From contig JANOQV010000237.1 of the NCBI GenBank assembly GCA_031414955.1, positions 1-39,928 on the forward strand: a DNA stretch of 39,928 nucleotides, written 5' to 3'. Shown here one piece after another: positions 6,601-39,849 of this stretch. The notes beneath the pieces were generated by a model. That model made no database searches. It was not told the DNA's origin and worked only from the letters and a program-made list of their open reading frames with translations. The stretch comes from Pedosphaera sp. (GTDB lineage Bacteria > Verrucomicrobiota > Verrucomicrobiia > Limisphaerales > SIBH01). A program made the translations under genes and the position numbers. Numbering within the stretch: the stretch's first letter is position 1; each line of letters opens with the position of its first letter.

Positions 6601-7918
6601 TGCCAGTCTTGCCGACGATCGTGCCCGGAGCCGCCGTCTCGCCCGGCACCAGCAATTGCAGCCGGGTGAACGGTCCGGCATTCACCGTGAGACTCGAACT
6701 CGGCACGGCCGTCACGCCGCTGGCACTCGCTGAAATCGTCGTGGTCTCCGCCGCGCGCAAGATGGTCGTAAGCGCCGTGGTCGATTCGCCGGCCGTGAAA
6801 TTCACCGAGGTCACATACGTGGCCGTGCCGGACGGTCCCGCATAAGCAATCGTCTTGGCCCCCGCGTAGCCGGTGGCGATATTCGTGAAGTTATCCACCG
6901 CAGTCAGGCGGGTGATGGTGAAGGGCGTGCCGGCAATCTGCGCGTTGGGCGAGTTTGAATTGCCCAGGCCCGCATAAAAAGTCTGGCCCGGCAGCGTGAC
7001 AAACAACTTTGTCGCCGCGCCCGCCGCCACCGTCAGCGTCCCGGAGTCGGTGGTCGGGAGCACGCCCGAGGTGGCGCGAATGGTGGCGGTGCCCACGATA
7101 TGGCCCGTGAAGGTGGCGCTCTTGCTATCACCCGCCGACACCAAATCGCCATCCACCACACCACTCGTTTTGGACGGCAGCGTCCATGAGTCGGCGGCCA
7201 CGTTGGCCACGAAATTGGAGAACGCGTCGCGCGTGATGGCGAAGACGTTCGTCGAGCCGCCGGCCGTGAGATTCAAGGACGGCACGACGACGCCAGTGCC
7301 GTCGGCCTTCGATTCGACGCGCACCATCGCCGCCGCGGCCGGCACTTCGTTCAGATCGCCAAAATTGCTCCCGCTCGAACCGTTCGCCGAGGTCGTCATG
7401 CCGCTCATGACGGCGCTGCCCCCGCCCGTGGTCGGGCGATACATGTGGTTGCCCGCTGCCAGGGGAGTCTTGGCAATCGGACGAACGCGAATGGGAGTGA
7501 CACCGCCGATGGTCAGCGAGTCGATCGCATTGTTGCCACCAACCGTGAGGGTGATGGTCAACGTGCTCGCATCCGTCACCGCCACCGAGGCCGAGGTGAT
7601 GTTCTGGCCTGCGGTAAAATCGGCGTCAGGCGTCGTCCCCGTGTCGAACTGAAAACCAGCGGGCACCTTCAGGACGAGAGTGACACCGGCCCCGGTCGAG
7701 AAATCGTTGTTGCCCCCTTCCGCAATGGTAATCGGTCCAAGCGTGGTCCAGGCGGGAGCGGGAGCGTTGGAAGCCGTCGCGGCCGAAATGGCTCCCCCGC
7801 CGGTGGCCGGCGTAATGGAGACCACGGCCTGCGCCACTTGCCACCCCAGCAGCAGGATCGCGGCGACAAGTGCCTGTGAGATGAAGGCTGTTTTCAGTGA
7901 ACGACGTGGCAGTGACAT
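1..7918 (-). CDS. Giant secreted repetitive surface protein/adhesin (>2639 aa, 3' end outside window): signal peptide, Ig-like repeats, 2 proprotein-convertase P-domain-like modules, cadherin/Ig-like repeats, MBG repeats
   Basis: ATG at 7918 with AGAGGA upstream. N-terminus MSLPRRSLKTAFISQALVAAILLLGWQVAQA-VVSITP looks like a Sec signal peptide. The same frame reads as sensible protein down to base 2 (..NSTNRVYGAVNPIFTGALVGVQNGDAITASF..KLGN). The long + strand ORFs 944-3163, 3173-6142, 6149-6580 and 7445-7879 are all its codon-register antisense shadow. The ORF track lists no minus ORF in this frame, consistent with no stop in the window. Confidence 0.92.
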   Translation of the reverse strand, partial: MSLPRRSLKTAFISQALVAAILLLGWQVAQAVVSITPATGGGAISAATASNAPAPAWTTLGPITIAEGGNNDFSTGAGVTLVLKVPAGFQFDTGTTPDADFTAGQNITSASVAVTDASTLTITLTVGGNNAIDSLTIGGVTPIRVRPIAKTPLAAGNHMYRPTTGGGSAVMSGMTTSANGSSGSNFGDLNEVPAAAAMVRVESKADGTGVVVPSLNLTAGGSTNVFAITRDAFSNFVANVAADSWTLPSKTSGVVDGDLVSAGDSKSATFTGHIVGTATIRATSGVLPTTDSGTLTVAAGAATKLFVTLPGQTFYAGLGNSNSPNAQIAGTPFTITRLTAVDNFTNIATGYAGAKTIAYAGPSGTATYVTSVNFTAGESTTALTTILRAAETTTISASASGVTAVPSSSLTVNAGPFTRLQLLVPGETAAPGTIVGKTGTPTARTNSIAFGVAVRAVDTNWNVISPVTDLVGVTSSDANAVLSANAALSNGTNLFNVTFKTAGSQTLTATDVTDGAKTPNTSPAITVNTGPFVKLQVIAPGETEAPGTATGKTGLATNQTAGTAFNVTVRAVDSDWNLVTSANGSGFTMHLVSSDANATLPADANLSSGDVIMSVTLRTAGSATFTATDVDDGAKTPGTSAVIGVNLGAFNKLQVLVPGETAAPGSATGKSGTPTAQDVGTAFNVIVRSVDSAWNLIETNDTVRLYSSDPAAVLPPNAALAAGSQSFSVALNTPGNRTFTASNVTHSAITTNLSSLIPVNPGPFARLQLLMPGETAVPNTPTGKTGTPTAQTAGASFNLIVNAVDTNWNVVSTVTDLIAITSSDTNATLPGNLALVAGTRTIAVTNKTSGAQSFTATDVTDGAKTPDTGSLAVINPAVASKLVIATQPSPTVVAGVALAQQPVLQIQDAFNNVRSNDTLSVAAARIAGSGNLLGTTNLAAVAGVVTFTNLSHRVATNITLRFSSGSLTAATSAVVAVTSAPFTQLLALLPGETSAPGTATGKTGTPTATAGTNTPVLVIAADNFFNVAGGISDTVGLTVTDTNAIAPANAPLSNGSNTFNLIFKTAGSQSVTATDLTDGGKTNDLVAVTVDAGAFVQLQLLVPGETAVAGTGSGKTGSPSSRTAGTAFNVTINGVDANWNLVPTASGASFSMRLLSSDTNATLPASANLTSGTLVQSVTLKTAGSATLTVTNVDTAAMAPSVSPSIPVNAGTFARLQLIVPDEIAAPGSASGKIGTPLMQGVGVPFAVIVNAVDTNWNVINTNDTIHITSSDAGATLPFDAALTNGTRSFNVTLNTAGSRTVTAWNVTHPSITSNTSPVITVSTNPFAKLQILMPGETNAPGTPSGRTGTPFAQIAGTAFNVIVNAVDTNWAVVNTVPDTIAITSSDTNAILPANAALIAGTRAFSVTLRTSGARTVTADDILHVDIVPVTGSNVVVNPAAANKLAIGTQPSATAYVGIPFAPQPVIFIQDQYNNIRSNDALVVSAHRSAGVSNLLGTTNLTSVNGVVAYTNLAHPTITNITIQFTSAGLTSVTSSNITVSAGSAPIIQAMQAITGPSVFVDHPALYRFYLYDAETSSNNLQLSFSSSNPTLFPTENSLYRYFRFDPDGEHWFLTLVPAFGQTGTATNTVQVSDGTNVTTTNFVLTVSPPPGGGVRFANTNFINIAAGGPASPYASTNVVSGLGGVITNLTLTISKISHQWIRDVHMLLVSPSGQAVPVFTRVSAGPVTNITATLTDASFFPLPPSDGFELWSEQFWPRDFAPSDTNNPVANHFPAPAPPGPYVTLTPTNGFKNAFNGLTANGEWLLYIYDENAPSFGTIVGGWSLMISTDGASAPLISDIPHQSTTTGLATPAIPFTIGDLDFPATSLTLSAASSNPALVPTNDIVFGGSGSNRTVTITPTAPQTGTSTITVTVSNGAKSTNDTFVVTVSTVNTPPVAAGVANQSIDKNTSTGPLAFTVGDGEAAAENLNLSKTSSNPTLVPTNNIVFGGSGSNRTVTVTPAIAQIGTATISVTVGDGQLSTNFSFVLTVNAVNAAPTISNVGNQSTPVDTATLAIAFTVGDEESSASSLTVSGGSSNPALVPTNNIVFGGSASNRTVIVTPALGLLGSATITLTVSDGTNSASDSFLLTVTASKIFSNAAALTIPAAGAASIYPSIINVSNMVGLVTNVTVTLHDLNHQWSRDPAAVLVGPGGQFVGLFSGIGGGGALSHLTLTFSDSAPSFIPNTILLTSTNYRCADWEFNDTNGFVNPLLPAPAPARPPGLAYPALLSAFNGQSANGNWSLYLADGSAVALSSGSLDGGWSLTISTASTNNAPTITDIVNQSTPVNTPTAALPFTLGSARTNATNLVLTAGSSNPTLVPTNNIVFGGSGSNRTVTITPASNLVGSATITVTVSDGVETANDTFVLTVNPVPMVISIDSTNRTYGAANPVFTGALAGVQPGDGITATFTTAATTNSSVGAYAIVPVLNDPNGRLGKYTITTNGGTLTVTAAALAVNVNSTNRAYGAGNPAFTGALVGLQNGDNITESLGSLATTNSPVGGYAITATLVDPGAKLGNYSLTINGGTLTVAAAALAVNVNSTNRVYGAVNPIFTGALVGVQNGDAITASFESAATTNSAVGAYAITATLADPGTKLGN
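680..3290 (-). repeat. Four close plus one diverged ~100-aa cadherin/Ig-like repeats interleaved with two P-domain-like modules
   Basis: Motif SSNPxLVPTNxIVFGGSxSNRTVxxTP recurs near 800-860, 1620-1690, 1920-1990 and 2220-2290, with a diverged copy near 3000-3290. P-domain-like modules (FNGxxANGxWxLYxxD...GGWSLxIST) lie at ~995-1510 and ~2430-2960. Confidence 0.75.
3300..7000 (-). repeat. Eight (plus one degenerate) ~115-aa repeats with a PGETxxxGxxxGKxGxP motif, arranged as a duplicated ~1689-nt block
   Basis: PGET/PDEI codons at 3905, 4247, 4601, 4940, 5594, 5936, 6290 and 6635, plus PGQT at 6980. Each is followed by FxVxxxAVDxxWNxV. Confidence 0.85.
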
Positions 7919-24038: not shown

Positions 24039-25874
24039 TCAATTCGCGTAACTCGCCTCGACCAGTTGCCGCTGGATGAGTTCGCTGGAGAGAATTTTGT
24101 GGATCTCGAGAGTGTAGTTCCGATAGCCGCCGAGATGGCCCTTGACCATTTCCTCGAGACGATGCCCCTGAAGGTACGGCCGGTTCCGCGTGCGCGGATC
24201 GAGCAGGATTTCCCGGACGTACTTCGCCCAATGGTCGCGGTAATAGACGCGAAAGTGATGGAACTTGTGCCGCCCCAGCCAGAGTCGCTCCAAATGCAGG
24301 GGCGAAAAACAATTGTCGAGACGCGCCAACCACTGCGGCATGCCGTAGTCGTAGGCGTATTCGGCCTTGAAGGTGAACTGCTGGAACTGATGCCAGGCCT
24401 GCATCACGCCGGGAATGGCGCGCACGGCCAGGCCGCGATCCGTGCCCACGGCGGCCAGCGCGGGATTTCCTTCCGAGATGAGCCGGAGCGCGGGGTCGTT
24501 GCTCTCGGCGATTTCCAGCGGCGCCTGATAGGAAAGCGCCACCAGTTCGTTGTCGAAGTAGGGCATCCGCAGGGTCAGGAACGAACGTTCCACCGAGAAC
24601 TTCGAACACATGTACCACGGGGTCTGTTTGAAGGCCGTGAAGGAGAGCTTGTGCCCCTGCAACTCGTGAAAGTAAGTCGTGGCGGCGGTGCGGGCGGACT
24701 CCTGCATTTCACCTTGCAGCAGCTCCGCCCCGTGGCTGGTCGGCTTGAAGGCCACGAGCCGGCGCAGGATTTCGCCGCCGTTGGTCCCGGTCACGCGCAC
24801 CGGTGCAATCTGCCGCGCCGCTCGTTGCACATAGAGATCGATGGCCCCGGTGACATCCATCGCGCCATCGCTGAGGTAAACCGTTTTCTCGGCGAGTGAT
24901 TGGAAGTCGGAGAGGAATTCCTTTTCGACGGCGATGACCTGGTGCGGCTGCTTGCAGATCCGCGCCACCTCCCGAGCCAGTTTCACATCCCGGCACTCGC
25001 GATACGGTCCGCCGAAAGTGTAGCAGGCAAGCGCGCCCTCCGGGACGGGCAGCCACGACAGAATCATCCGGCTGTCCACCCCGCCGGTCAGCGACAACCC
25101 CACCCGATCTTTGCCCCTGAAATAGCGCGGCAACACGCGGGCCCAGGTTTCCTTCAGCTTCGCGTAATAGTCCTCCGCGCCCAGCGCCGGCAGTTGTTCC
25201 CACAACTCCTTCCGGAAATAAGTTTCCTTGCGCACACGGTGGCCGGGCGCGAAGGACCAGACCGAGGCTCCCGGCAGCAACGAAACCCCGGCAAACAGCG
25301 TCCGGTTCTGGAGCGCGCAGCCGCAGGAGAAAAATTCGCCGAGGCTCGCGGTATCCAGCCGACGCAGTTCGGGCAGCACTTGCAGAAGCGCCTTGGCCTC
25401 GGAGGCGAAGAACACGCCCCGCTCATTCTCGTGGACGTAAAGCCGGTTCAGGCCGAAGCGATCATTGAAGATCAGGACCTTCTTTTCTCGCAGATCAACG
25501 ACCACGCCGGCGAAGCCGCCATTCAGCGTCTCCAGAAATCTGGCACCCTGTTCCTCGTAGAGATGAACGAGGTAGCTGGCGTTCTCCGGATCGAAGGAAT
25601 GCCCGCGCGCCCGCAACGCCTCGAGTTCCGCCGCATCGCGAAAGTCTTCGCCCGAAAAAATCAGGCAGACATCGCGCGTCTCGTTCCAGACCGGCTGGCA
25701 GTCCGCGAAAGTTTCCGCGTGCGACACCCAGCCCGCCCAAAGATTCAGCGCCGGGTTGACGTAGGTGCCGGGGCGATCAAATCGCTCATGCACCATGCGC
25801 CGCACCATCGCGTCCAGCATGGTGCCGTGCCCTTCACCCGTCCCCTGCCCTATGAATCCAACAATCCCAGCCAC
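24039..25874 (-). CDS. Asparagine synthetase B-like amidotransferase/amide ligase lacking the N-terminal Cys
   Basis: GTG start, MAGIVG. LNGGFA..NDRFG..LY..FFASEAKALL glutaminase-domain motifs; PP-loop SLTGGVDSR; LRMPYFDNELV. Confidence 0.88.
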   Translation of the reverse strand: MAGIVGFIGQGTGEGHGTMLDAMVRRMVHERFDRPGTYVNPALNLWAGWVSHAETFADCQPVWNETRDVCLIFSGEDFRDAAELEALRARGHSFDPENASYLVHLYEEQGARFLETLNGGFAGVVVDLREKKVLIFNDRFGLNRLYVHENERGVFFASEAKALLQVLPELRRLDTASLGEFFSCGCALQNRTLFAGVSLLPGASVWSFAPGHRVRKETYFRKELWEQLPALGAEDYYAKLKETWARVLPRYFRGKDRVGLSLTGGVDSRMILSWLPVPEGALACYTFGGPYRECRDVKLAREVARICKQPHQVIAVEKEFLSDFQSLAEKTVYLSDGAMDVTGAIDLYVQRAARQIAPVRVTGTNGGEILRRLVAFKPTSHGAELLQGEMQESARTAATTYFHELQGHKLSFTAFKQTPWYMCSKFSVERSFLTLRMPYFDNELVALSYQAPLEIAESNDPALRLISEGNPALAAVGTDRGLAVRAIPGVMQAWHQFQQFTFKAEYAYDYGMPQWLARLDNCFSPLHLERLWLGRHKFHHFRVYYRDHWAKYVREILLDPRTRNRPYLQGHRLEEMVKGHLGGYRNYTLEIHKILSSELIQRQLVEASYAN

Positions 25875-27610: not shown

Positions 27611-28096
27611 TCAGGTGGAAGATAATTCCGTGCTCTTCATCCGCAACACCTTGTTGTGGCCGACCACCACGGAGTAAGCGGGCACGCTCTCGGTCACCAC
27701 GGCGTTCGCGCCAATGATGGACCATTCACCGATGGTGATGCGGCCCAGAATTTTGGCGCCCGGCCCCACATACACGCCTTCCTTCAAAATGGGATCGCCG
27801 TCATCCTTCATCACTCCGGCGTAGGGACTTTTGCACCCGAGAGTCACTTGTTGCAGGAGCACAACATCATTGGCCAGTTGCGCCTGTTCCCCCGTCACGA
27901 TGCCAAGCGGGTGCGGGATGAACAACCGCTTCGGGATCACGCAGGCGATCTGACATCCCAACAGGAGACCGATCAACTTGCCGGTCCGGCGCCACCCGCG
28001 CCGTAAACAACTCAGGTACAAGGCGGCGAGCTTGCCGTTCTTGATGCACGGGTTCTTGGGATATGACTTCCCATGATCTGATCCCTCTTCACGCAT
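27611..28096 (-). CDS. Hexapeptide-repeat (serine acetyltransferase-like) acetyltransferase
   Basis: IPHPLGIV, QQVTLG and VYVGPGAKILGRITIGEWSIIGANAVVTESVP left-handed beta-helix motifs. Start uncertain (ATG 28096 or GTG 28102). Confidence 0.82.
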   Translation of the reverse strand: MREEGSDHGKSYPKNPCIKNGKLAALYLSCLRRGWRRTGKLIGLLLGCQIACVIPKRLFIPHPLGIVTGEQAQLANDVVLLQQVTLGCKSPYAGVMKDDGDPILKEGVYVGPGAKILGRITIGEWSIIGANAVVTESVPAYSVVVGHNKVLRMKSTELSST

Positions 28097-28121
28097 AACC
28101 ACCGCCGATGACTGCTGGAAT

Positions 28122-28158
28122 CTGAAAGCCGGCCCCGGCCAAAGTGACCGGCCCGGCT
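28122..28158 (-). terminator. GC-rich hairpin just downstream of the tRNA-like gene (weak terminator or processing signal)
   Basis: Minus strand AGCCGG-G-CCGGTCA-CTT-TGGCCGG-GG-CCGGCT followed by TTCAG; the U-tract is short. Confidence 0.45.
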
Positions 28159-28169
28159 GATGTGATGAA

Positions 28170-28244
28170 TGGAGCCGGCGAGAGGGTTTGAACGCTCCAC
28201 CTTCCGATTACAGATCGGACGCTCTACTTTTGAGCTACACCGGC
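28170..28244 (-). tRNA. Non-canonical tRNA-Thr(UGU)-like gene with encoded CCA
   Basis: Minus strand GCCGGTG TA GCTC AAAAGTA GAGC G TCCGA TCTGTAA TCGGA AGGT GGAGCG TTCAAAC CCTCT CGCCGGC T CCA. It has a 7-bp acceptor stem, 4-bp D stem, perfect 5-bp anticodon stem, UGU anticodon, TTC loop and CCA. Deviations: no D-loop GG, C at position 33, bulged or mismatched T stem. Confidence 0.88.
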
Positions 28245-28266
28245 ATTAAGGAAAACGGGCGGCGAT

Positions 28267-28296
28267 GCTTTAGTTCACATCCAACGAACCCGTCAA
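28267..28296 (-). promoter_or_regulatory. Putative sigma-70 promoter for the tRNA-like gene
   Basis: TTGACG (28296-28291), 18-nt spacer, TAAAGC (28272-28267), then a GC-rich discriminator-like ATCGCCGCCC; ends 22 nt before the tRNA 5' end. The -10 is weak. Confidence 0.45.
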
Positions 28297-28329
28297 CGTC
28301 AGACTTCATCGGCAGCCCGCGATAAACCA

Positions 28330-29331
28330 TTAAGCTGATTTCGTTTCCGCCTGCTTGTTCTGCTCCACAGCCTCAGACGGTTCGGCCCCGGTTTTTTGAA
28401 CCGCCCCGGAGGCGAGCTTCGCCCGGATCTTGACCAAGAAGGCGGCCAGGCCCGGCGGCAGCAACTGCGTGAGGCTGCGATGCAACTTCAGCGTCAACGC
28501 GAGCCGGCCCTTGACTGTCAGCGGCACAAAGTAGCGCGGGAAGTTCATCTGCTCGAAGCCGTTGCGGCGCTTGAACTCGGCCAGGGGGGTGTTCGGATTG
28601 CTGCCGTAGCTGTACTTCCCGTAAACGAGGTGGGTGATGCCCTTCTGCGAGCAAACCTCCACGGCCTTGGCCAGCAACGCGTTCATGGGACGCTTGTCCT
28701 GGTGGCAATTCATCGAGAGGATTTGAACAATCTCCGCCACCTTGTCCACGTAGATGAGCTTGATGAAGCCAATGAGTTTTCCCTCGAAGAACGCGCCGAT
28801 GAAGTCACTGCGCTCCAGGTAGGTCGCGTTTTCCATCCGCACTGTTTCGAGATCCTTGCCGTAGTGCCAGAACTTCCGGCCCTGGCGGACAGGCGTCTCG
28901 TCGTAAATCGATTTGATGCCCTCGACGAATGCGGTGTTGAACTCCGCCACTTCCAACACCACGCCCCGCTTCGAGGCCCGGCGCGCATTCTTGCGGGACT
29001 CCTGCGGCAGCTTCTTCTCCCACCAGTCCGTGTAATCCACCGTGGAAACGACCGCCGCGTTGTCCCATTCAAAGTAGAGGTCGTGCCTGGGCTTCGTGTG
29101 CGGCACCTTCTGCGCGAAGCTGAGCAGGTCCGCGCCCAATGATCCGCCACGCACGCCTTGCACGAAAGCTTTGGGGTCGCGCACCGGTTCGCCTTCCACC
29201 AGTTCGTCGTCCTTGATCACGGCCAGCTTCAGCCACCGGCCCTTGACGATGACGGTGCGGCCTTCGACTTCGGCAGACACCGTCTTAATGGTTTTGCCCC
29301 GGATGCGGATCTCGGTTTGCTCGGATTTCAT
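28330..29331 (-). CDS. FemAB/GNAT-fold (Acetyltransf_6-like) protein, candidate aminoacyl-tRNA-dependent transferase
   Basis: WWEKKLPQESRKNARRASKRGV resembles the basic helix of Fem-like proteins; GAFFEGKLIGFI; PMNALLAKAVE; C-terminal LAEFKRRNGF matches the FK..xG motif. ATG at 29331. Confidence 0.72.
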   Translation of the reverse strand: MKSEQTEIRIRGKTIKTVSAEVEGRTVIVKGRWLKLAVIKDDELVEGEPVRDPKAFVQGVRGGSLGADLLSFAQKVPHTKPRHDLYFEWDNAAVVSTVDYTDWWEKKLPQESRKNARRASKRGVVLEVAEFNTAFVEGIKSIYDETPVRQGRKFWHYGKDLETVRMENATYLERSDFIGAFFEGKLIGFIKLIYVDKVAEIVQILSMNCHQDKRPMNALLAKAVEVCSQKGITHLVYGKYSYGSNPNTPLAEFKRRNGFEQMNFPRYFVPLTVKGRLALTLKLHRSLTQLLPPGLAAFLVKIRAKLASGAVQKTGAEPSEAVEQNKQAETKSA

Positions 29332-29335
29332 CAAA

Positions 29336-30073
29336 TTACAAAGCCGCGTACGGCGCGAGTCGGAGCCCGCTCATTGTCTGCTCGAACGTGTGGCTCAGCA
29401 GCCAGTTTTTTTCTGTCTCGTGGATGGGATGCGTCATCATCTCCACGTTGGCCGAGCGCGCACTCTCCACCACGCGATTGAGGCGATTGGCCTTCAGGCA
29501 TTCGCCGAGCGAGAAAAAATAATCCGTCAGGCGGTAACGCCGGGCCAGCCGCCGATCCATCCACCCCCGATACGTGCGGTTCAAGGCGCTCTTCTCGCCG
29601 GGCCAGAAGGAAAAGTTCCGACGCACTTTCGCGCCGTTGGGAATCACGTCACCGAAGAGAATATTCGCGCACAGGTGCCGATGCTGATGCCCATCGACGT
29701 GCGTCGGCTCATGACCGAAGAGCCGCACGTACTCGTCCCACTGCGACCGAAAGACGGTCAAAAAGTCCTCCTTCAATTCCGGCCGATAGAGCAGCACGGC
29801 GTACTTGGTCTTGTTCAAGTAGGCACAGAGGCGCTGATGCGCCTCCTCCGCCGCTCCGCCGGGACCGCGTCCGTCGTAGCGCTGGTTGAGATTCAAGTGC
29901 AGGCCGGCATCAACGCCGTGTTCCTTGGCCAATTCCGCCGCGCGTTCTGAATCCGCCATGAAGACCATCGCGCTCACCGAGGTAATCCTGCCGGCGCGAA
30001 AGCATTCCAGTTCCACGTCGGTCTCCGCGCGACAACGTCCCCAGTCGTCGGCGTTGATGATCAGCATGGCCAT
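29336..30073 (-). CDS. ChbG/HpnK (YdjC) family carbohydrate deacetylase
   Basis: LIINADDWG, TSVSAMV, GLHLNL, PTHVDGHQHRH and EMMTHP motifs. Confidence 0.9.
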   Translation of the reverse strand: MAMLIINADDWGRCRAETDVELECFRAGRITSVSAMVFMADSERAAELAKEHGVDAGLHLNLNQRYDGRGPGGAAEEAHQRLCAYLNKTKYAVLLYRPELKEDFLTVFRSQWDEYVRLFGHEPTHVDGHQHRHLCANILFGDVIPNGAKVRRNFSFWPGEKSALNRTYRGWMDRRLARRYRLTDYFFSLGECLKANRLNRVVESARSANVEMMTHPIHETEKNWLLSHTFEQTMSGLRLAPYAAL

Positions 30074-30986: not shown

Positions 30987-32201
30987 TCAGGCCGTCACGG
31001 CCTCACGAACCGGCGCGCGCTTCTCAGCAGCGACCAGTTCCTCCGCCAGCGTCGCCAGCGCGAGGAACATCCACGCCTGTGACCAGCGCATGTACGAAGT
31101 GCGAATCGTGCAGTAAGGCAGCTTGCGATAGTAAAAGAACCCGTGCTCGTCGCGCATGTGCTGCATCGCCCAGTCGAACACCGAGCGCGCCCGCGGCACT
31201 CCGCCAGAGTCGAGGTGCTTGAACTCAATCGGTGAAATGATGCTCTGCGCCACGCAATGCACGTCGATGGGATACGTGTTGTTGTGGAAGTAGCGCGGCG
31301 TGCCGTCTTCGAGAAAGAAATGCTTCCGGTAGAAATCATACCCGCGCCGGACCGCGGGCTTGAACTCGTCCGTGCCCGCGCATTCGCCGAGCACACGGAG
31401 GCCGGTCAGGTTGTAGGCCGTGTGAAAGTTGTCGATCCATTGCTGCTTGGGCAGTTCACCGTAGGGCCACGAACCGTCCACCGCCTGCTTCGAGGCCGAC
31501 CAGCGCGCGAGCTCGAGCGCTAGTTCCATGTGACTGCGGTTTCCGGAGAGCCTGGCCACACGCGCCAGCAGCGCCGCACCGAGGAAGTTCGCGTTGTGAA
31601 TTATCGACTTCAACGTGGGCAACGGATAGGCCACTGACGTCACGTCGCCGTCCGTCCAGACCAGCGTCGAAATGTAATCGGCCGCGCTCAAGGCCATGGC
31701 CAGCAGCCGTGGATCCTTCCGCACTTCGTAGAGATCTAGCACGGCGTTGGTGACGAAGATGGTGCAAACGATGTTCGGCGCTCCCACCGGCACGACGATG
31801 GTGCGCGTCTGCCACGGGAAGCTGTAGCCCCAGGCCCAATACGGAACGCCCGGAGAGCGCATTTCGACCAGGCGCTGGGCCATGTAATCGATCAGGCTTT
31901 CGTCTTTGAGCAGCCCGGCCTTCTGTAGCCGGATCAGCCCGAGGAGGAAGAGCGACAGCGCCTTCGAGTTCTGCGTCTTGGGGATGAGCAGCAGCGAACG
32001 CACATTCACCGGACTGCGCTTGAGCACTTGCGTCATCACCAACCGCGGCCAGCGCGAATCGAGGAAGGGCAGCGCCTTGAAGATGCGGCTGTTCAGCGCA
32101 TCATACGGATCGTGCCCGGCCCAGTCGTTGGCCTGGCAATAGGCCAGCAACTTGAGCGTCGCGGACGCCGGATCTTCGACTGTGGTTCGAGCTGAATTCA
32201 T
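30987..32201 (-). CDS. Conserved polysaccharide-locus protein, predicted (alpha/alpha)6 toroid (epimerase/hydrolase-like)
   Basis: DPYDALNS, WGYSFPWQTR, HNAN, DGSWPYGE, WIDNFHTAY, YPIDVH and YMRWSQAWM; helical repeats with aromatic loops. The fold is inferred. Confidence 0.75.
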   Translation of the reverse strand: MNSARTTVEDPASATLKLLAYCQANDWAGHDPYDALNSRIFKALPFLDSRWPRLVMTQVLKRSPVNVRSLLLIPKTQNSKALSLFLLGLIRLQKAGLLKDESLIDYMAQRLVEMRSPGVPYWAWGYSFPWQTRTIVVPVGAPNIVCTIFVTNAVLDLYEVRKDPRLLAMALSAADYISTLVWTDGDVTSVAYPLPTLKSIIHNANFLGAALLARVARLSGNRSHMELALELARWSASKQAVDGSWPYGELPKQQWIDNFHTAYNLTGLRVLGECAGTDEFKPAVRRGYDFYRKHFFLEDGTPRYFHNNTYPIDVHCVAQSIISPIEFKHLDSGGVPRARSVFDWAMQHMRDEHGFFYYRKLPYCTIRTSYMRWSQAWMFLALATLAEELVAAEKRAPVREAVTA

Positions 32202-32218: not shown

Positions 32219-33466
32219 TCAGTGCGCGGCCGTGACCGGCTCGGCCAGTTGCGCGCCCGGCTCGGAAACCCGCACCGCATCGTGCCGAGTGATGTCCTCC
32301 ATCATCTTGAGGTAACGGTCCCTCATTACTTCCCAGCGGATGGGCACGTATTCCTGTTTCGCCTTCGCCGCGAGTTTCGCCTGCAAGGCCTTGTCCTGGT
32401 AAACGCGCACCATCTGCTTCGCCAGATCCGCCGACTGGTTGGGCTCGAAGAAGGCCAACCCCTCCTCACTGAAGTAATGGCGGATGGCCTTCAACCGCGA
32501 GCAGATGACGGCCTTGCCCATGATGATGTATTCGGAAAGCTTGTTGGAAAACGAGAAGTCGAGGAACACGTCGCGCCGGGTGGAGAGCACACCGACATCG
32601 CAGCGATGCAACCATTCCGGAACCGCCTCGGGCCGGACGCTGCCGACAAAACGCACGCGCCCGTCCAGTCCAAGCTTCTTCACCATCGCTTCCAATTCGG
32701 CTTTCTCGGGACCGCCGCCCAAAATCCAAAACTGCGCGCCGGGCATTTCCTTCTGCGCGAGTCCGAACGCCTCGATGGCAATGTCCAGCCCGTAGATGTG
32801 AGTCAGCGTGCCGTGATACATCATCACGAATTCTGGCTGCTCCTCGCCCGGCTTCGATGCTGGCGGCGCGTTCACGACCTTCTCGAAAATCGATTCATCG
32901 ACCGAGTTCATGATCTCAATGGATTTGCCGGGCGTCAGGCCGCGGCTGACCAGCAACTGAGTGATCGGCTCGTTGATGGTGATGACATGGTCCGCGAAAT
33001 CAAAGCTGATCCTCTCGATCCATTTGAGCAGGCCCACCACCAGCGAGTCCTCCTTGATGCCGTACTTTGAGATGTAGAACTCGGGCGTGATCTCGTGCAT
33101 GTCGAAGATGATCTTGGCCCCGCGCCACTTGGCATACAGGCCGGCAAAGACCAGGAAGTCAGGGAGATTGTTCACATCCACCACGGCGTACTGCCGTGAA
33201 CCCATGCGGGCGGACAGCTTGCAAAAGGCCCAGACGAGGAAGGCGAAGTACTCGTAAAAGTAACGGACCAGCGAGCCGCGCTTCTTGCCCAGCGCCACCG
33301 TCTCCACGTTCACGCCGCACAACGTAAAATTCTTGGACTTGGAGAAGGAGGATTCCAGCGCCAGCACATCGACGGTGTATCCGGCGGCGACCAGCGCCTC
33401 GGCCTTGCGCCGCACCCGAATGTCGATCTCGTAGTGGTTTTGCAGCAGTATGCAGACTGATTTCAT
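32219..33466 (-). CDS. Glycosyltransferase family 4
   Basis: Start ATG 33466 overlaps the upstream stop (ATGA). DIRVRRKAEAL, FDMHEITPE, YHGTLTHIYG and NKLSEYIIMGK motifs. Confidence 0.9.
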   Translation of the reverse strand: MKSVCILLQNHYEIDIRVRRKAEALVAAGYTVDVLALESSFSKSKNFTLCGVNVETVALGKKRGSLVRYFYEYFAFLVWAFCKLSARMGSRQYAVVDVNNLPDFLVFAGLYAKWRGAKIIFDMHEITPEFYISKYGIKEDSLVVGLLKWIERISFDFADHVITINEPITQLLVSRGLTPGKSIEIMNSVDESIFEKVVNAPPASKPGEEQPEFVMMYHGTLTHIYGLDIAIEAFGLAQKEMPGAQFWILGGGPEKAELEAMVKKLGLDGRVRFVGSVRPEAVPEWLHRCDVGVLSTRRDVFLDFSFSNKLSEYIIMGKAVICSRLKAIRHYFSEEGLAFFEPNQSADLAKQMVRVYQDKALQAKLAAKAKQEYVPIRWEVMRDRYLKMMEDITRHDAVRVSEPGAQLAEPVTAAH

Positions 33467-35124
33467 TTGCTTGTGGGCGCCTCTTCCAGCACCCGCCCCG
33501 TAGAAATACACAATTCGGAATCGCCCGTCCACGAGACATCTTCCGCCTCCCCGGCGGTGCCAAAGGCCGGCGGACGATGGACCCGCACGGTCAAGGGCGG
33601 ATCAAACCGCTCGCCGCGCGCTTGCAGCTTCACGCCGCCGTCCGCCGCATCGGAAACCGCGAACGTGACCGCGCGCCGCCGGCGAAACCAGCCGACAGCC
33701 TGCGCACCGGAGGCGAACCAGACGTTGAGGGTGCGGAGGTGGCCCACCAGGCGGGCGTAGAAATCCCCCCAGAACCTTTCCGGTCCGTGGCTGCGGTCGT
33801 GCCAGAGCAGGGTCAGCACGCCGCCAAATTTTTCGCTGTTCGCCATCATACGCTCGCAGAGCTTCCACGCCGCCTCGTCGGTCAATCCGAGCCGCTGCGG
33901 GTAGAACAAGGCGCCGTCCTGAATGTGCATCGGCAGTTCCAGCAGGGTGCGTGAGCCGAAAGGCCGGAAGGTCTGCGTGGTGCCGCTGCGATAACCGGGC
34001 GTTTCGTTGTAGCCGGTCGTGGAGTCGTAGGAGTAGCCGGATTCCTCCAGCACGCGAAAGGTGTTCTCGTCGCGCAACAGCCAGTGCATCCGGATGCCGA
34101 TCTGCTTTTCGCCGGTGACGGACGAGACGCGGCGCAATTCCTCGCGGCCCTTCATCACGCTGTGCCAGGCGTCGATGCCGTGAACGCCAATCTCGCAGCC
34201 CGCCTCCATCAACTTCGCCGTCCACTCGGGCATGTCGGTGATGTCGTAGGCGGTGGCGCGGCGCTCGGCGTGGTTCGCCGACACCTTGTCGCCGGCGCGG
34301 CGCTTGAAGGGGATGAGGTAATACGTCGCGGGCAAATCTTTCTCGACTTGCAAATACCACTCGAACGGAATCCAGAAATCTTTCGCCCAACCCAGATAAA
34401 CGAACGGCAGCGAAGCAGCAGCACGCCACACCTTGAGGAGCTTCGAAAAGGACATCCGCCCTTTGATCATTTCGCGCAGCGCGCCAACGGTCGAGCGATA
34501 CAGGAAGCCCCACATCGTGTGATCGAACTTGTGCTGGCGAATGCCAATGAAGTCGATGTCGTGCGTAAGACAGACCGTAAAATCCTTGCCGGCGGGCACG
34601 GGCGGAATTTCCACGAAGGAAATCCCGGCGGCGAGAATCCACTCGCGCAACATGGCGATGTGGATGTCCAGCGCGGGAACCTGCGCGTGCTCGACTGGCT
34701 GCCCGGTGGAGAGGAGGAAGCGGACTTCCTGAAACAAATCGTAACCAAGCCGCAGCACCGTCGAGTCCGGAGCCTGCATCCTGAGACCGGCGATTTCTGA
34801 ATTGCCAGCGAAGCAAACGGCGTCCTTCTTCGCGCCCACGAAAATCAACGCACGACCGTAGAGCGGGAGCGAACTTCCCTGATAATCAATGGCGACGCCG
34901 TGATCCTTGGAGCGTCCGGCCAGTTTGGCTTTGCGGTCCCAGGCGCTCAGTTCCGATCCGTAAACGAGCAGCAGCCGCGCCTCCACGGCGGGAACCTGAT
35001 CTCCGGCGGCGATGACGACATCATACAACCGGCCGGGGTGATAGAATTCCCACGGGGTCTTGAACAACTGGAAGAACTCCTCGACGACCGAGGTTTCGTC
35101 CGCTCTGGTGATGACGCCGATCAT
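33463..35124 (-). CDS. Polysaccharide deacetylase-like protein (CE4/NodB-like C-terminal domain)
   Basis: CLTHDID, EIGVHG, GIRMHWL, YSYDSTTGY, ELPMHIQDG and TLLWH motifs. Confidence 0.82.
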   Translation of the reverse strand: MIGVITRADETSVVEEFFQLFKTPWEFYHPGRLYDVVIAAGDQVPAVEARLLLVYGSELSAWDRKAKLAGRSKDHGVAIDYQGSSLPLYGRALIFVGAKKDAVCFAGNSEIAGLRMQAPDSTVLRLGYDLFQEVRFLLSTGQPVEHAQVPALDIHIAMLREWILAAGISFVEIPPVPAGKDFTVCLTHDIDFIGIRQHKFDHTMWGFLYRSTVGALREMIKGRMSFSKLLKVWRAAASLPFVYLGWAKDFWIPFEWYLQVEKDLPATYYLIPFKRRAGDKVSANHAERRATAYDITDMPEWTAKLMEAGCEIGVHGIDAWHSVMKGREELRRVSSVTGEKQIGIRMHWLLRDENTFRVLEESGYSYDSTTGYNETPGYRSGTTQTFRPFGSRTLLELPMHIQDGALFYPQRLGLTDEAAWKLCERMMANSEKFGGVLTLLWHDRSHGPERFWGDFYARLVGHLRTLNVWFASGAQAVGWFRRRRAVTFAVSDAADGGVKLQARGERFDPPLTVRVHRPPAFGTAGEAEDVSWTGDSELCISTGRVLEEAPTSK

Positions 35125-35230: not shown

Positions 35231-35713
35231 TCATTCGTCGTCCTCTGGTAATTCCGGTGTGACTAGATGGACAAGGCCGATAGCGTCGATAACCTTGATG
35301 CCGGGGAAGCGCTCTTGTGGCCGAATCTGACGGTCGATGGCGTTCTTGGTCTGTTCGGAGATGACAATGAGGTATCTGATAAAGTCCCCGGGCTCGTCGG
35401 CGAGTCGCTGCAAGTCGCGCTCGATAGCGCGCTTTTGGGGTCCGCGGAGTGCAACAGTTTCCGATGTGTGAGTTGCCTTGACCTCGGCGATGAGTCGCCG
35501 CGTGCCGTCTGACGCAAAACCCTGAATGTCGATGCCGCCTACGCCCGCTCCACCGTATCGCAAGTCGAGTTCGGGATGGAACGTGCGAAGCTTCTCGATG
35601 GCGATCCATGAAAGCTTATCGTGAATCCGGTTGTTCAGGATGCTCACTGCTTGCTTGAGTGAGATCAGGAACTCGAGTTCGTCCGTGTAAGTCTCAATGA
35701 GCGATTTGGCCAT
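35231..35713 (-). CDS. Cassette-borne hypothetical protein with a PD-(D/E)XK nuclease-like motif (160 aa)
   Basis: ATG 35713. GGIDIQG...LIAEVKAT matches D...ExK. Codon usage is visibly less GC-biased than in neighbouring genes, and it is unrelated to sugar metabolism. Confidence 0.7.
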   Translation of the reverse strand: MAKSLIETYTDELEFLISLKQAVSILNNRIHDKLSWIAIEKLRTFHPELDLRYGGAGVGGIDIQGFASDGTRRLIAEVKATHTSETVALRGPQKRAIERDLQRLADEPGDFIRYLIVISEQTKNAIDRQIRPQERFPGIKVIDAIGLVHLVTPELPEDDE

Positions 35714-35748
35714 ATTTGGAGAGCGCGCTAGCAACGCCTAACATCTGA

Positions 35749-36936
35749 TTAAGCCAACACCGGTTCCGCCTTCACCGCTGCCGGTTGCTTGAAGAAATTG
35801 CACACTGTTTCCACGACGTAGCGCGCCTGCGCTTCCTCCAGTTCCGGATAGACTGGCAGCGCCACCGTCTCCAGCGCCGCGCTTTCGCTGTGCGGGAAGG
35901 TGCCCTTGCCCTGGCCGAGGTAGGCGAAGCATTCCTGCAAGTGCATCGGCACCGGGTAGTAAATCTCCGTGGCGATGCCGGCCTTCTCCATCGCGTTCTT
36001 CAGCGCATCACGCCGCGAGGAGCGGATGATGTACTGGTTGAAGATGTGGCGGTTGGCCGCGGTCTTCGGCAGATAGAGGTCCACGCCATTGGAGCCGCGC
36101 TTGGCGAACTGCGAGCTGTCGGCGATCTTGATCCCGGACTCGGCGAAGAGCTGGTCGTAGCGCGCGGCGTTCTGCTGGCGCGCGGCCGTCCACTTGTCGA
36201 GGTGGCGCAGCTTCACCGAAACGATGGCGCCTTGCAGCGAGTCGAGGCGGAAGTTGCCGCCGATGACCTTGTGATAATACTTGGGCTTCGAGCCGTGGGC
36301 GCGCAGCAAGGCGAGCTTATCCGCGCGCGCGGCGTCGTTGGTCACGACCATGCCGCCGTCGCCGGCGCAGCCGAGATTCTTCGAGGGGAAGAACGAGAGG
36401 CAGCCATAGTGGCCGATGGAACCGGCCCGGCGGCCCTTGTCCTCCGCGCCGATGGCCTGCGCACCGTCCTCGATGACCACGAGATTGTGCTTCTTGGCCA
36501 CCGCCATCACGCCGTCCATGTCGGCCATCTGACCGTAGAGATGCACGGGAATGATGACTTTGGTGCGCGGCGTAATCTTCGCTTCGATCTGCGCCGGGTC
36601 GAGATTGTAGGTCGTGGGATCGATGTCCACGAAGACGGGCTTGGCGCCGAGCCGCGCAATGGCGCCGGCCGTGGCAAAAAACGTGTAGGGCGTGGTGATG
36701 ACTTCATCGCCCGGGCCGACACCCTCGGCCATGAGGCAGATGAGCAGCGCGTCGCTGCCGGACGAAACGCCGACGCCGTGCGCCGCGCCCGAGTATCTGG
36801 CGATGGCCTTTTCGCATTCGACCACCTTCGGCCCGAGAATGAAGTGCTGGGACTCCATGACCTCGGCCACCGCGGCGTCGATTTCCGCCTTGATGGTGTG
36901 GTACTGCGCTTTCAGATCGAGCAAGGGAACATTCAT
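35749..36936 (-). CDS. DegT/DnrJ/EryC1/StrS PLP-dependent sugar aminotransferase (WbpE-like)
   Basis: VPLLDLKAQY, IPVHLYGQ, IEDGAQAIG and SFFPSKNLG (PLP lysine) motifs. Confidence 0.93.
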   Translation of the reverse strand: MNVPLLDLKAQYHTIKAEIDAAVAEVMESQHFILGPKVVECEKAIARYSGAAHGVGVSSGSDALLICLMAEGVGPGDEVITTPYTFFATAGAIARLGAKPVFVDIDPTTYNLDPAQIEAKITPRTKVIIPVHLYGQMADMDGVMAVAKKHNLVVIEDGAQAIGAEDKGRRAGSIGHYGCLSFFPSKNLGCAGDGGMVVTNDAARADKLALLRAHGSKPKYYHKVIGGNFRLDSLQGAIVSVKLRHLDKWTAARQQNAARYDQLFAESGIKIADSSQFAKRGSNGVDLYLPKTAANRHIFNQYIIRSSRRDALKNAMEKAGIATEIYYPVPMHLQECFAYLGQGKGTFPHSESAALETVALPVYPELEEAQARYVVETVCNFFKQPAAVKAEPVLA

Positions 36937-38618
36937 CGATTCACTCCTGTGTTTTTCAATTCTCCGTAAGACACCGTGCCGCGGCTCAACTCGGCCGGCA
37001 GCTTTGCTTCTTCATCCAAATCCAGGCAACGCAACAAGCCCTTCTTTACTTCCTGGTAGCGATAGCCGGTCTCGGGGCACTTCATGATGCCGTCCGGGCC
37101 GGCGTGCAGCTTGTGGCCGTGGCGGCTCATCCAGCCGACCTGCTTGGCAGGATTGCCGACGACGAGCGCGTAGTCGGGAACATCCTTGGTCACCACCGCG
37201 CCCGCGCCGATGAAGGCGTAGCGCCCGATGGTCGTACCGCAAACGATGGTCGAGTTCGCGCCCACGGTGCAGCCGCGCTTGAGTCGGGTGGTTTCGTAAA
37301 GTGAGTGGCGGTTCACCTGCGAACGGGGATTGGTCACGTTGGTCAGCACGCAGGACGGGCCGAGGAACACGTCGTCCTCGATGATGGTGCCGGTATAGAC
37401 CGAGACGTTGTTCTGAATCTTGACGTTGTTCCCAATGGTCGTGCCGCCGTCGATGTTGACGTTCTGGCCGATGACGCAGCGCTCGCCGAGCTTCGCGCCT
37501 TTGATGATGTGGGCGAAATGCCAGACCTTGGTGCCCGCGCCGATTTCGGAGCCGGCGTCCACGCAGGCGGTCGGATGCGCGAAATAGGGCAGAGCCTTCT
37601 GCTCCGGGCTGGCGGATTCCAGTTCGACCGCCGTGCCCTTGTTGAGCAGCGAACGCTGGCAGGCATCAAGCACGTTCAGCACGCGCAAGCCTTCGCGACC
37701 GTCGGTGAGCGGTGCTTTGCGCGAACGCACACTGTCGATGAAATGCTGGCACTCGGTCTTGAGCGGCTCCTGCTTGTCGAGCGCGACCACCTCGCCCTTG
37801 GCCTTGATGGCGGTCGGGATGCGGTTCTTCCACTCCACCTTGTGCGGATAAAGCACGAGCTTGTCGTCGATGGTGTCGTCGAACACGGCCATCTTGTCCG
37901 AGCCGACCACGACGAGACGCTGCTCCTTCACCGGGTGCAACCAGCTCACATAGATGTGCGCCTGCACGCCGCTCGGGAAACTGAACTGGCTCATCGTCAC
38001 GTCGAAAATATCGCTGCTCAGATACGCGCCGCCCTGGCAGGTGATGCGGTTCGGAACTTCATTGAGCAGGGAGAGGATCACCGAGATGTCGTGCGGGGCG
38101 AAGCTCCAGAGAATGTTTTCCTCGGTGCGGATTTTCCCGATGTTGAGACGGTTCGAGTACAGGTAGTGAATTTTCCCCAACTCGCCCTTCTGGATCAGCT
38201 CCTGTAATTTCACCACCGCCGGATGATAGCGGAGAATGTGGCCGACCATGAGGATGCGACCGCGGGCCTCGGCGAGTTCCACGAGTTCCCTGCCCTGCTT
38301 CACTTCGATGGCGAGCGGCTTCTCGACATAGACATCCTTGCCCGCCTCGAGCGCGGCCTTCGCCATGTCGTAGTGGGTGACGGCGGGCGTGGAGAGCGCC
38401 ACGGCGTGGATGGACGGATCGGCCAGCACCTGCTTGTAGTCGCGGACGAAGCGGACGTTGCTGTACTGCGCCTTGTGGTCCGTCTCCACCGATTCACGCG
38501 AATCGCAGATGACCGAGAGCGCGCCCAGTTCGTGGAAGTTGCGCACGAGGTTTTTGCCCCAGTAGCCCATGCCGATCGCGGCGACGTTCACGCCCTGGTT
38601 GTTCGATTGGTTCTGCAT
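36933..38618 (-). CDS. Fused Gfo/Idh/MocA oxidoreductase (WbpB-like) and hexapeptide N-acetyltransferase (WbpD-like)
   Basis: ATG 38618 with GGAAAGAG upstream. N-half has GMGYWG, VEKP and WSFAPHD. C-half has HPTACVD..GTKVWHF, KIQNNVSVY, TNVTNPRS and VVGNPAKQVGW. Confidence 0.9.
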   Translation of the reverse strand: MQNQSNNQGVNVAAIGMGYWGKNLVRNFHELGALSVICDSRESVETDHKAQYSNVRFVRDYKQVLADPSIHAVALSTPAVTHYDMAKAALEAGKDVYVEKPLAIEVKQGRELVELAEARGRILMVGHILRYHPAVVKLQELIQKGELGKIHYLYSNRLNIGKIRTEENILWSFAPHDISVILSLLNEVPNRITCQGGAYLSSDIFDVTMSQFSFPSGVQAHIYVSWLHPVKEQRLVVVGSDKMAVFDDTIDDKLVLYPHKVEWKNRIPTAIKAKGEVVALDKQEPLKTECQHFIDSVRSRKAPLTDGREGLRVLNVLDACQRSLLNKGTAVELESASPEQKALPYFAHPTACVDAGSEIGAGTKVWHFAHIIKGAKLGERCVIGQNVNIDGGTTIGNNVKIQNNVSVYTGTIIEDDVFLGPSCVLTNVTNPRSQVNRHSLYETTRLKRGCTVGANSTIVCGTTIGRYAFIGAGAVVTKDVPDYALVVGNPAKQVGWMSRHGHKLHAGPDGIMKCPETGYRYQEVKKGLLRCLDLDEEAKLPAELSRGTVSYGELKNTGVNR

Positions 38619-38695
38619 TGTCGTCTCTTTCCACCGGCACAACGGCCGGTTTGCTCCGCTAACTCATCGTCTTGTCGTCAGAAAATCCTGAGCCG

Positions 38696-39748
38696 TTACT
38701 TCAGCAAAGCCACGCACTTGGCGGACACACAGCCTTCGCCGTAGAGCGCAGGGCGTGAAGCGGGCGGCGCGAAGGTGCGAATGCTGTTCACAATGGAATC
38801 ACGGTCAAAGCCGGCGAGCCTGTTCCATCCGCTCTCGACGGTTTCCACCCACTCGGTCTCGTCGCGCAGCGTCACGCACGGCACGCCCAGCCAGTAAGCC
38901 TCCTTCTGCAAGCCGCCGGAATCGGTGAGAACGAGACGGGCCGAGCCGGTCAGCGTCACCATGTCGAAATAGCCCAACGGCTCGATGAGTTTGATGTGCG
39001 GTTTGAGTTGGTGGCCGCCCTCGGCGAGCACCTTGCGGAAGCGCGGGTGCGCGGGAAACAGCACCGGCTCGTCCAGCGCGTTGAAGGCATTGAGAATGTT
39101 GACCAGGCGCTTGGGGTCATCGGTGTTCTCGCTGCGATGCACGGTGGCCATCAGGTAGCCGTTTTTCTTGAGACCCAGGCGACCGAGTGTTTCCGAAGCC
39201 TTGGGCGCGGAGCGTTCCCTGGCCCAGTTCAACACGTCGAGCATCACGTCGCCGACAAGGTGGACGCCTTTCGTGATGCCTTCGGAGGTGAGGTTCGTAA
39301 TCGCCGTCGAGCTGGGGCAGAGCAGCAGCGCCGAGAGATGATCCGCAATGACGCGATTCACTTCCTCCGGCATGCGACGGTTGAAGCTGCGCAGGCCGGC
39401 CTCCACATGGACGACCGGGATGTGGAGCTTCGAGGCCGCGAGCGCGCCGGCCAGCGTGGAATTGGTGTCGCCGTAGATCAGCACCCAGTCGGGCTTCTCC
39501 TGAATCATCACTTCCTCGACCGACTTCAGCATCGCGCCCGTCTGCGCACCGTGCGTACCGGAGCCGACGCCGAGATTGAAGTCGGGCGCGGGAATCTCCA
39601 ACCCGTCGAAGAACACGCCCGACATGGCGTAGTCATAGTGCTGCCCGGTGTGAACGAGCAGTTCCTTGTGATGCTTGCGCAACTCGCGGCTGACCGCCGC
39701 CGCCTTGATGAACTGCGGCCTCGCGCCAACTATGCTGACAATTTTCAT
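38696..39748 (-). CDS. wecB: UDP-N-acetylglucosamine 2-epimerase, non-hydrolysing (WecB/WbpI-like)
   Basis: Start ATG 39748. VGARPQFIK, HTGQHYD, GDTNST, HVEAGLRS, PEEVNR, TDSGGLQKEA and RDETEW motifs. Confidence 0.93.
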   Translation of the reverse strand: MKIVSIVGARPQFIKAAAVSRELRKHHKELLVHTGQHYDYAMSGVFFDGLEIPAPDFNLGVGSGTHGAQTGAMLKSVEEVMIQEKPDWVLIYGDTNSTLAGALAASKLHIPVVHVEAGLRSFNRRMPEEVNRVIADHLSALLLCPSSTAITNLTSEGITKGVHLVGDVMLDVLNWARERSAPKASETLGRLGLKKNGYLMATVHRSENTDDPKRLVNILNAFNALDEPVLFPAHPRFRKVLAEGGHQLKPHIKLIEPLGYFDMVTLTGSARLVLTDSGGLQKEAYWLGVPCVTLRDETEWVETVESGWNRLAGFDRDSIVNSIRTFAPPASRPALYGEGCVSAKCVALLK

Positions 39749-39849
39749 TCTGTTTCCCTGTCGGCTTCCCGGTTGAAAAGCCGCGTGCCGGTTGAACTCA
39801 AAATCTTGCCGCGTTCGAATCCCGATGGAGGCAACCAGGCCCAAACGCC

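Follow-up and report, generated by a model that had tools for sequence, protein, structure and literature searches.

We analyzed a stretch of 39,928 nucleotides (nt) from Pedosphaera sp. (Verrucomicrobiota; contig JANOQV010000237.1, positions 1 to 39,928, hereafter the window) in which an extra transfer RNA (tRNA) gene lies directly behind the gene of a candidate aminoacyl-tRNA-dependent transferase. Read along the minus strand, a YdjC/ChbG-family deacetylase gene (29336-30073; PF04794, E 1e-29, with ADDWG, HVDGHQH and MTHP motifs present) is followed after 4 nt by the transferase open reading frame (ORF; 28330-29331), which encodes 333 amino acids (aa), then after 85 nt by a tRNA-Thr(UGU)-like gene (28170-28244), and after a further 67 nt by a hexapeptide-repeat acetyltransferase gene (27611-28102) that is EpsC/CysE-like by a match below cut-off. 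The first-pass annotation had described these four features from the letters of the DNA, and their positions, order and gaps were confirmed on the minus strand; it had further read them as one module for the transfer of threonine to a surface polysaccharide.

The tRNA-like gene is called from its match to Rfam RF00005 (52 bits; gathering threshold 29), its fold and its recurrence in related loci. It folds as a cloverleaf (z -2.6), and ARAGORN, which misses it at default settings, finds it as Thr(UGU) at a 90% threshold. The D-loop of the molecule contains one G only. The molecule further has C33, a bulged C between T-stem positions 52 and 53, A51-U63, U73, an encoded CCA and a TTC T-loop. Since ordinary tRNA-Thr genes for UGU, CGU and GGU are present on other contigs of the same genome, the window tRNA is an extra one; 48-52 of its ~75 positions are identical to those genes.

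Relatives of the transferase were found in 175 GTDB loci, the best 80 of which form the main set, with neighbors counted up to 6 kb on each side. Many of the tRNAs beside these genes, here called private tRNAs, escape ARAGORN at default settings and the Rfam filters, and two custom models were built for this reason; the type-I model also matches ordinary tRNAs, and a whole-genome search with it of five tRNA-less genomes was therefore uninformative. A look-alike tRNA occurs on the same strand in 68 of the 80 loci, and in 60 of the 80 it lies within -30 to 300 nt of the transferase stop codon, where at the tRNA density of this genome the chance of finding any same-strand tRNA within 330 nt is ~0.0014 per locus. 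By record label, tRNA-positive loci belong to Verrucomicrobiota (51/55), Acidobacteriota (8/15), Pseudomonadota (3/3), Actinomycetota (2/2) and, with one locus each, four further phyla, making eight phylum labels, some of which may be wrong in records of metagenome-assembled genomes; related loci are also not independent. Within the order of the window the transferase occurs in 40 of 401 genomes, and of the 39 besides the window's own, 31 have a private-type tRNA, counted in the stretch fetched from each and in a set that overlaps the 80 loci. The search was also run in the opposite direction: a T-arm pattern of the private tRNA matches 21 of the 401 order genomes, and all 14 exact matches, including one that lies 8 kb away from the transferase gene, fall in transferase-positive genomes. 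One cultured carrier, Horticoccus sp. 23ND18S-11 (L080), has the transferase gene, a tRNA of CGU type 16 nt behind it, and a Cys-less AsnB gene. The 7 one-mismatch matches comprise one beside a transferase gene, one ordinary tRNA-Gly, three 3' fragments and two with no model match. Linkage between the tRNA and the transferase is tight and holds in both directions, as the reading in the first-pass annotation required for other genomes. A more distant clade, represented by 80 metagenome loci (the best of 559), has a private tRNA in 33, a count from many short contigs that leaves out two ordinary-looking tRNAs (L189, L223). In a phylum-wide sample of 401 genomes the only strong match was in the window's own genome, and no relatives were found in viral contigs or plasmids. 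The genome has two PF13480 genes on other stretches; neither these nor two remote matches have a convincing tRNA nearby.

A first class of private tRNAs comprises 69 copies (one per locus plus the window copy) with 65 distinct sequences. All 69 have a fully paired acceptor stem, U73 and a bulged T-stem, and 65 have A51-U63, whereas the D-loop GG is found in 8, A32 in 42 and U33 in 56. Among 44 ordinary tRNAs of the genome (an atypical array on contig C221 and genes without CCA left out), D-loop GG and U33 are found in all 44 and a perfect T-stem in 42. The C221 array (370-2479) packs at least seven atypical tRNA genes (Gln, two Leu, Arg, Lys, a long Thr-CGU and Gly) into 2 kb and stands apart from the ordinary set. 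In a mixed sample of 28 private tRNAs, 96% of cells are paired (slid controls, 43-55%) and double changes occur at 17 of 21 pairs; the private tRNA secondary structure is maintained. The identity of tRNA-Thr is set by G35, U36 and C2-G71. The anticodons of the 69 copies are UGU (45), CGU (18), AGU (3) and UCC (3), so that the wobble base drifts while G35-U36 is kept in 66.

More distant enzymes carry private tRNAs of Gly, Val, Ala or Ser type. The anticodon, whose variation the first-pass annotation had proposed to survey, does vary, and threonine is one of several likely amino acids across the family. The Gly type (7 distinct) has UCC and U73 in 7/7 and G3-C70 in 6/7. The Val type, with 2 distinct sequences bearing an AAC or AAA loop and in one case C73, is the least secure identity call. 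All 32 distinct Ala-type tRNAs have A73, and in 20 a GNRA or UUCG tetraloop stands as the anticodon loop, the others being irregular; they were sorted by G3.U70, so a count of that pair would be circular. Their T-stem is imperfect in 22. The Ser type (12 distinct) has a long variable arm, G73 in 11, a GNRA loop in 7 and an extra T-stem base in 11. Anticodons with A34 (AAC, AAA, AGU) occur in private tRNAs of L096, L098 and L100 and of L026, L058, L061 and L134; such anticodons are rare in bacterial translation.

In the available text of PMC9976931, anticodon determinants are listed for Gly, Val and Thr and none for Ala, and Ser identity is anticodon-independent. The Thr and Gly types keep their anticodon. 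Where the synthetase is blind to the anticodon, as for Ala and Ser, most private tRNAs have a tetraloop in its place. Retention of the anticodon under synthetases that read it, and its loss under those that do not, is what a charged carrier should show. A tRNA that decodes would not be expected to behave so, nor would a relic or a processing signal; the pattern fits selection for charging rather than decoding. A full cloverleaf with CCA would also suit a helper tRNA in translation, and tRNA genes are common targets of integration, so that a relic of an integration site might look similar. However, the genome has its ordinary Thr set, no duplicated 3' half of the window tRNA was found in it, and no integrase family was detected by Pfam among the 29 window ORFs scanned. 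The 65 distinct sequences of the 69 copies also share the same defects, and no anticodon can be read in the Ala and Ser types, which leaves a helper or relic hardly credible.

For the transferase, assignment draws on an AlphaFold model (predicted local distance difference test score 89), Foldseek, VIA-align and conservation. The top Foldseek matches are Sba18, Sbb17, MprF and FemX. VIA-align gives Z 18.8 against FemX (root-mean-square deviation (rmsd) 4.1, 259 residues aligned) and Z 18.3 against Sba18 (rmsd 4.2, 240 residues), compared with Z 13-15 for acyl-coenzyme A (CoA) tandem GNATs. The modeled protein has a tandem-GNAT Fem fold, best matched over both domains by aminoacyl-tRNA-dependent enzymes. 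A basic helix at positions 110-121 (QESRKNARRASK), placed at the start of domain 2 by sequence and model and containing the family-wide conserved R113, probably binds tRNA by analogy with FemX. F253-K254 is kept in at least 93% of 196 aligned rows, and K254 may correspond to the catalytic Lys305 of FemX by position and motif rather than by residue-level superposition. Roles for a tRNA-binding helix and a catalytic Lys in FemX and other Fem enzymes are described in the available part of PMC12945691. Cys227 is near-invariant across the family and is not known to have a role in the Fem mechanism.

Sequence searches with the transferase give a weak PF00583 GNAT match only (E 9e-4), PaiA-type matches and unnamed homologs in the thousands (5100 of 8000 candidates were scored). 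Together with the placement of the tRNA-like element nearly always between two co-oriented genes, such matches would suit an acyl-CoA GNAT whose operon carries a tRNA-like piece as a signal for mRNA processing or stability. In acyl-CoA GNATs, the motif A pyrophosphate loop contains Gly. The PaiA loop HKKIGKT, however, aligns to Gly-free DKRPMNA in the transferase, where D212, K213, P215 and N217 are conserved, and the acyl-CoA tandem GNATs score lower in structure. Retention of G35-U36 or UCC, with loss of the anticodon confined to the Ala and Ser types, would not be expected of a processing signal, and this alternative is very improbable. The choice of a Fem-like enzyme over an acyl-CoA GNAT in the first-pass annotation is supported by the predicted fold and by the missing Gly-rich acetyl-CoA loop.

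The fold ranking also bears on the kind of bond that is formed. MprF and aaPGS domains rank third in Foldseek (VIA-align Z 14-16) and deacetylases are often absent nearby, as might be expected if the product were an ester on a sugar hydroxyl or lipid, as made by MprF, or an aminoacyl-sugar linker that anchors proteins, as in Wbp/Vim systems, and not a polymer amide. The two exosortase-family genes of the genome and the Wbp- and VimE-like genes of the locus would suit the linker version (compare the accessible part of PMC7468200). Against both stand the higher scores of FemX and Sba18, the lack of a membrane flippase domain in the model and the location of both exosortase genes on other contigs, and we regard an ester or linker as quite unlikely.

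Enzyme and tRNA type were compared on a FastTree tree of 196 rows. Of these, 121 carry one label (70 Thr, 35 Ala, 8 Ser, 5 Gly and 3 Val); 57 rows without a label, 15 short and 3 double-labeled rows were left out, and the labels, assigned partly by hand, include two rows that turned out to be Ser-like. The tRNA type requires 9 changes on the tree, compared with at least 39 in 200 shuffles, although related rows share labels and the low count is not proof of co-evolution. Four Gly rows that were tested do not form one clade (approximately unbiased test, p-AU 5e-6; 33 rows, with the group named after the first tree). In L034, a Thr-type body carries a UCC anticodon and the enzyme is placed within a Thr subclade. 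The alignment columns that differ most between tRNA types fall in the basic helix, at 109-118. Some loci hold more than one unit: L048 has two transferase genes with their own tRNA behind each, L136 and L139 combine Ala and Ser types, and L177 combines Ala and Gly. In L140 (3800-4270), five identical Ala-type tRNA genes stand in tandem with a 99-nt period, directly after the transferase gene.

The steadiest partner of the transferase is an AsnB-like protein without the N-terminal catalytic Cys. It is encoded in the window at 24039-25874 on the minus strand (Pfam GATase_7 and Asn_synthase; alignment), begins M-A-G-I where the family has MPGI, and keeps the ATP-binding-type motif TGGxD. Cys-less AsnB occurs in 72 of the 80 loci and, among the 54 loci that are full-length, in 53; it is ~20% identical to the Cys-bearing class, the classes having first been sorted by that Cys. 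Among the 44 longer loci of the distant set it is found in 34, and YdjC in 17. In the main set YdjC is present in 13 loci (directly upstream in 6), CE4 in 8, VimE-like deacetylase in 8, Cys-bearing AsnB in 35 and Wzy-like proteins in 34. A close homolog of the window acetyltransferase is found in 5 of the 80 loci, each time directly behind the tRNA. These counts identify transferase, tRNA and Cys-less AsnB as the conserved unit, to which YdjC is frequently and the acetyltransferase occasionally added; the four-gene module of the first-pass annotation, which left out the AsnB, does not hold as a unit. A complex prediction for transferase and Cys-less AsnB scored 0.00 and gave no answer.

AsnB chemistry requires an outside amine where the glutaminase Cys is lacking. 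The constancy of the Cys-less AsnB and the absence of that Cys would accord with the same private donor serving another linkage: the AsnB would activate a uronic-acid carboxyl by adenylation and join it with the amine of the amino acid that the tRNA delivers. The product would be an N-uronoyl amino acid or a cross-link, and the deacetylase would be incidental. O antigens do contain amide-linked amino acids, according to the available part of PMC7685785. On the other hand, in known Fem-fold enzymes the acceptor of the aminoacyl group is an amine or hydroxyl (accessible text of PMC12945691), ammonia may serve the Cys-less AsnB, and Cys-bearing AsnB is also found in 35 of the loci. This linkage is an unlikely alternative that nonetheless deserves more weight than an ester or linker.

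An unannotated 404-aa protein, encoded in the window at 30987-32201 on the minus strand with no Pfam or NCBIfam match, recurs in 50 of the 80 loci. Its look-alikes in the Atlas fall in clusters auto-named 'delta-aminolevulinic acid dehydratase', with weak GH88/GH76-like matches. A conserved, unannotated 590-aa neighbor in 18 loci (e.g. L018:866-2662; DDP and HGCDH motifs) appears deacetylase-like by eye, is unsupported by family or profile matches, and was not counted; several recurrent small ORFs proved to be wrong-frame shadows.

The wider cluster around the tRNA gene holds family matches to Wzx, Wzy, several glycosyltransferases, Wbp-like amino-uronate genes, a VimE-like deacetylase and the AsnB-like gene. 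The Wbp-like genes lie at 35749-39844 on the minus strand and comprise, at family level, a DegT aminotransferase, a Gfo/Idh dehydrogenase-hexapeptide fusion and a WecB-type 2-epimerase. A second candidate deacetylase, VimE-like, lies at 33463-35124 on the same strand (NF053580, E 2.5e-14, 52.7 bits versus a cut-off of 440). The first-pass annotation had assigned the locus to the synthesis of di-N-acetylated sugars; family-level matches for this are present, but most of the Wbp-, DegT-, WecB- and VimE-like assignments fall below curated NCBIfam cut-offs. No PF03721 UDP-sugar dehydrogenase was found on the window contig, and three lie elsewhere in the genome. A scan for promoters and terminators gave signals at chance level. 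A 167-aa ORF at 35231-35734 on the minus strand, between the DegT and VimE-like genes, has no homolog in the 80 related loci, and four long ORFs (370, 739, 989 and 199 aa) at 264-6845 of the window have no Pfam match.

Several known systems share parts of this arrangement. Among them are the staphylococcal non-proteogenic tRNA-Gly molecules (NP1-3) that serve FmhB, FemA and FemB, likewise extra tRNAs with A51-U63, a Fem-fold partner and an envelope polymer as product. In the accessible part of PMC7826273, that system is limited to Gly and to peptidoglycan as acceptor and is reported in S. aureus and S. epidermidis only. Here, in contrast, the tRNA gene adjoins the enzyme gene in a polysaccharide cluster, the T-stem is bulged, five identities occur and the anticodon has disappeared from the Ala and Ser types; the window tRNA itself is of Thr type with a TTC T-loop, where the staphylococcal molecules have Gly identity and a TGC/TGT T-loop. 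By this analogy, the private tRNA appears to work like the staphylococcal non-proteogenic tRNA and is not a member of that group. The top structural matches of the transferase, Orf11/Sba18/Sbb17 of streptothricin-type antibiotics (PDB 9wqy, 9wqx), are 12-14% identical to it and act on a small-molecule antibiotic; Orf11 transfers Gly from Gly-tRNA to an amino sugar, and the available text of the review refers neither to a dedicated tRNA nor to a tRNA gene (PMC12945691). A deacetylase, a FemAB-related transferase, an AsnB-like protein and Wbp genes come together in the VimA/VimE Wbp pathway of Porphyromonas and Tannerella and with the PEP-CTERM FemAB proteins of TIGR03019. The product of the VimA/VimE pathway is a seryl or glycyl amino-uronic sugar, and the word tRNA is absent from the part of PMC7468200 that is available. 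The window transferase does not match TIGR03019, and two relatives match it weakly (19-25 bits versus a cut-off of 260; best E 1e-5). The allo-tRNAs and selC* tRNAs are also non-canonical bacterial tRNAs, some with a T-stem bulge and some in Acidobacteria, but their arms are 8/4 or 9/3 and they act in translation, whereas the private tRNAs here are 7/5; polysaccharide is not mentioned in the accessible portions of PMC5389517 and PMC7609411. The present analysis places Thr, Gly, Val, Ala and Ser private-tRNA types in one enzyme family. Searches of literature that excluded most subscription papers turned up no description of a polysaccharide locus that carries a non-translating tRNA of its own, in line with the impression stated in the first-pass annotation.

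We consider it very likely that the tRNA is a private aminoacyl donor for the adjacent transferase. The cell's own threonyl-tRNA synthetase would charge it, as the kept acceptor stem and G35-U36 suggest. The distorted T-stem and elbow of the tRNA would largely prevent binding to EF-Tu and use by the ribosome; affinity for EF-Tu is set by T-stem pairs 49-65 to 51-63 (available part of PMC7826273). The Fem-fold enzyme would then bind the acceptor arm and move Thr to a nucleophile on a polysaccharide precursor. Among the cases with a private donor, a sugar amine is somewhat favored as the acceptor, and by analogy to Orf11/Sba18 and VimE-VimA it would most probably be a free amine on an amino-uronic-acid nucleotide or a lipid-linked repeat unit. 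Either a deacetylase, of VimE-like or YdjC type, or an aminotransferase may supply that amine. The Cys-less AsnB is probably an ATP-dependent amide ligase of this pathway and would use an outside amine. The complete proposal, a private Thr carrier for a Fem-fold enzyme that decorates a surface-polysaccharide precursor, is in our judgment probable. The cassette would be modular, with other lineages pairing the enzyme with a Gly-, Val-, Ala- or Ser-type tRNA and some with none.

Several observations count against this proposal. The window tRNA carries G49-U65, a tight EF-Tu pair according to the accessible text of PMC7826273, and the T-stem is perfect in 10 of the 32 Ala-type tRNAs. MprF, which forms esters on lipid, stands near the top of the Foldseek ranking, and sequence-only searches retrieve plain acetyltransferases of PaiA type. 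A YdjC, CE4 or VimE-like deacetylase lies within 6 kb in just 25 of the 80 loci. Finally, no tRNA was found in 12 of the 80 loci, 9 of which have more than 250 nt of downstream DNA and 3 less than 250 nt, and the distant clade is mostly without one. The private tRNA is therefore not essential to the transferase family, and members that lack it use either the ordinary tRNA pool or an RNA that the models miss.

According to the available part of PMC7826273 (2020), glycine of the staphylococcal cell wall was then the only case for which non-translating tRNAs of this dedicated kind had been reported. If the proposal is true, such tRNAs extend to polysaccharide synthesis in soil and water bacteria and to five identities, and the loss of the anticodon where the synthetase ignores it would be a natural test of tRNA identity rules. 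It would also suggest that VimA-type transferases use aminoacyl-tRNA, and charged tRNAs that evade EF-Tu would be useful parts for synthetic biology. A broader picture, which taken as a whole falls somewhat short of probable, is that of a widespread and mobile enzyme-tRNA cassette in which the co-encoded tRNA (Thr, Gly, Val, Ala or Ser) sets the surface amino acid and the Ala and Ser versions are anticodon-less non-translating carriers. Clusters with two enzymes or two tRNAs might then build short peptide side chains on capsule or exopolysaccharide, linked or cross-linked by the Cys-less AsnB in a peptidoglycan-like manner. For the organisms that carry such a locus, the private tRNA in the genome would, if the proposal holds, read out the likely amino acid on an uncharacterized glycan.

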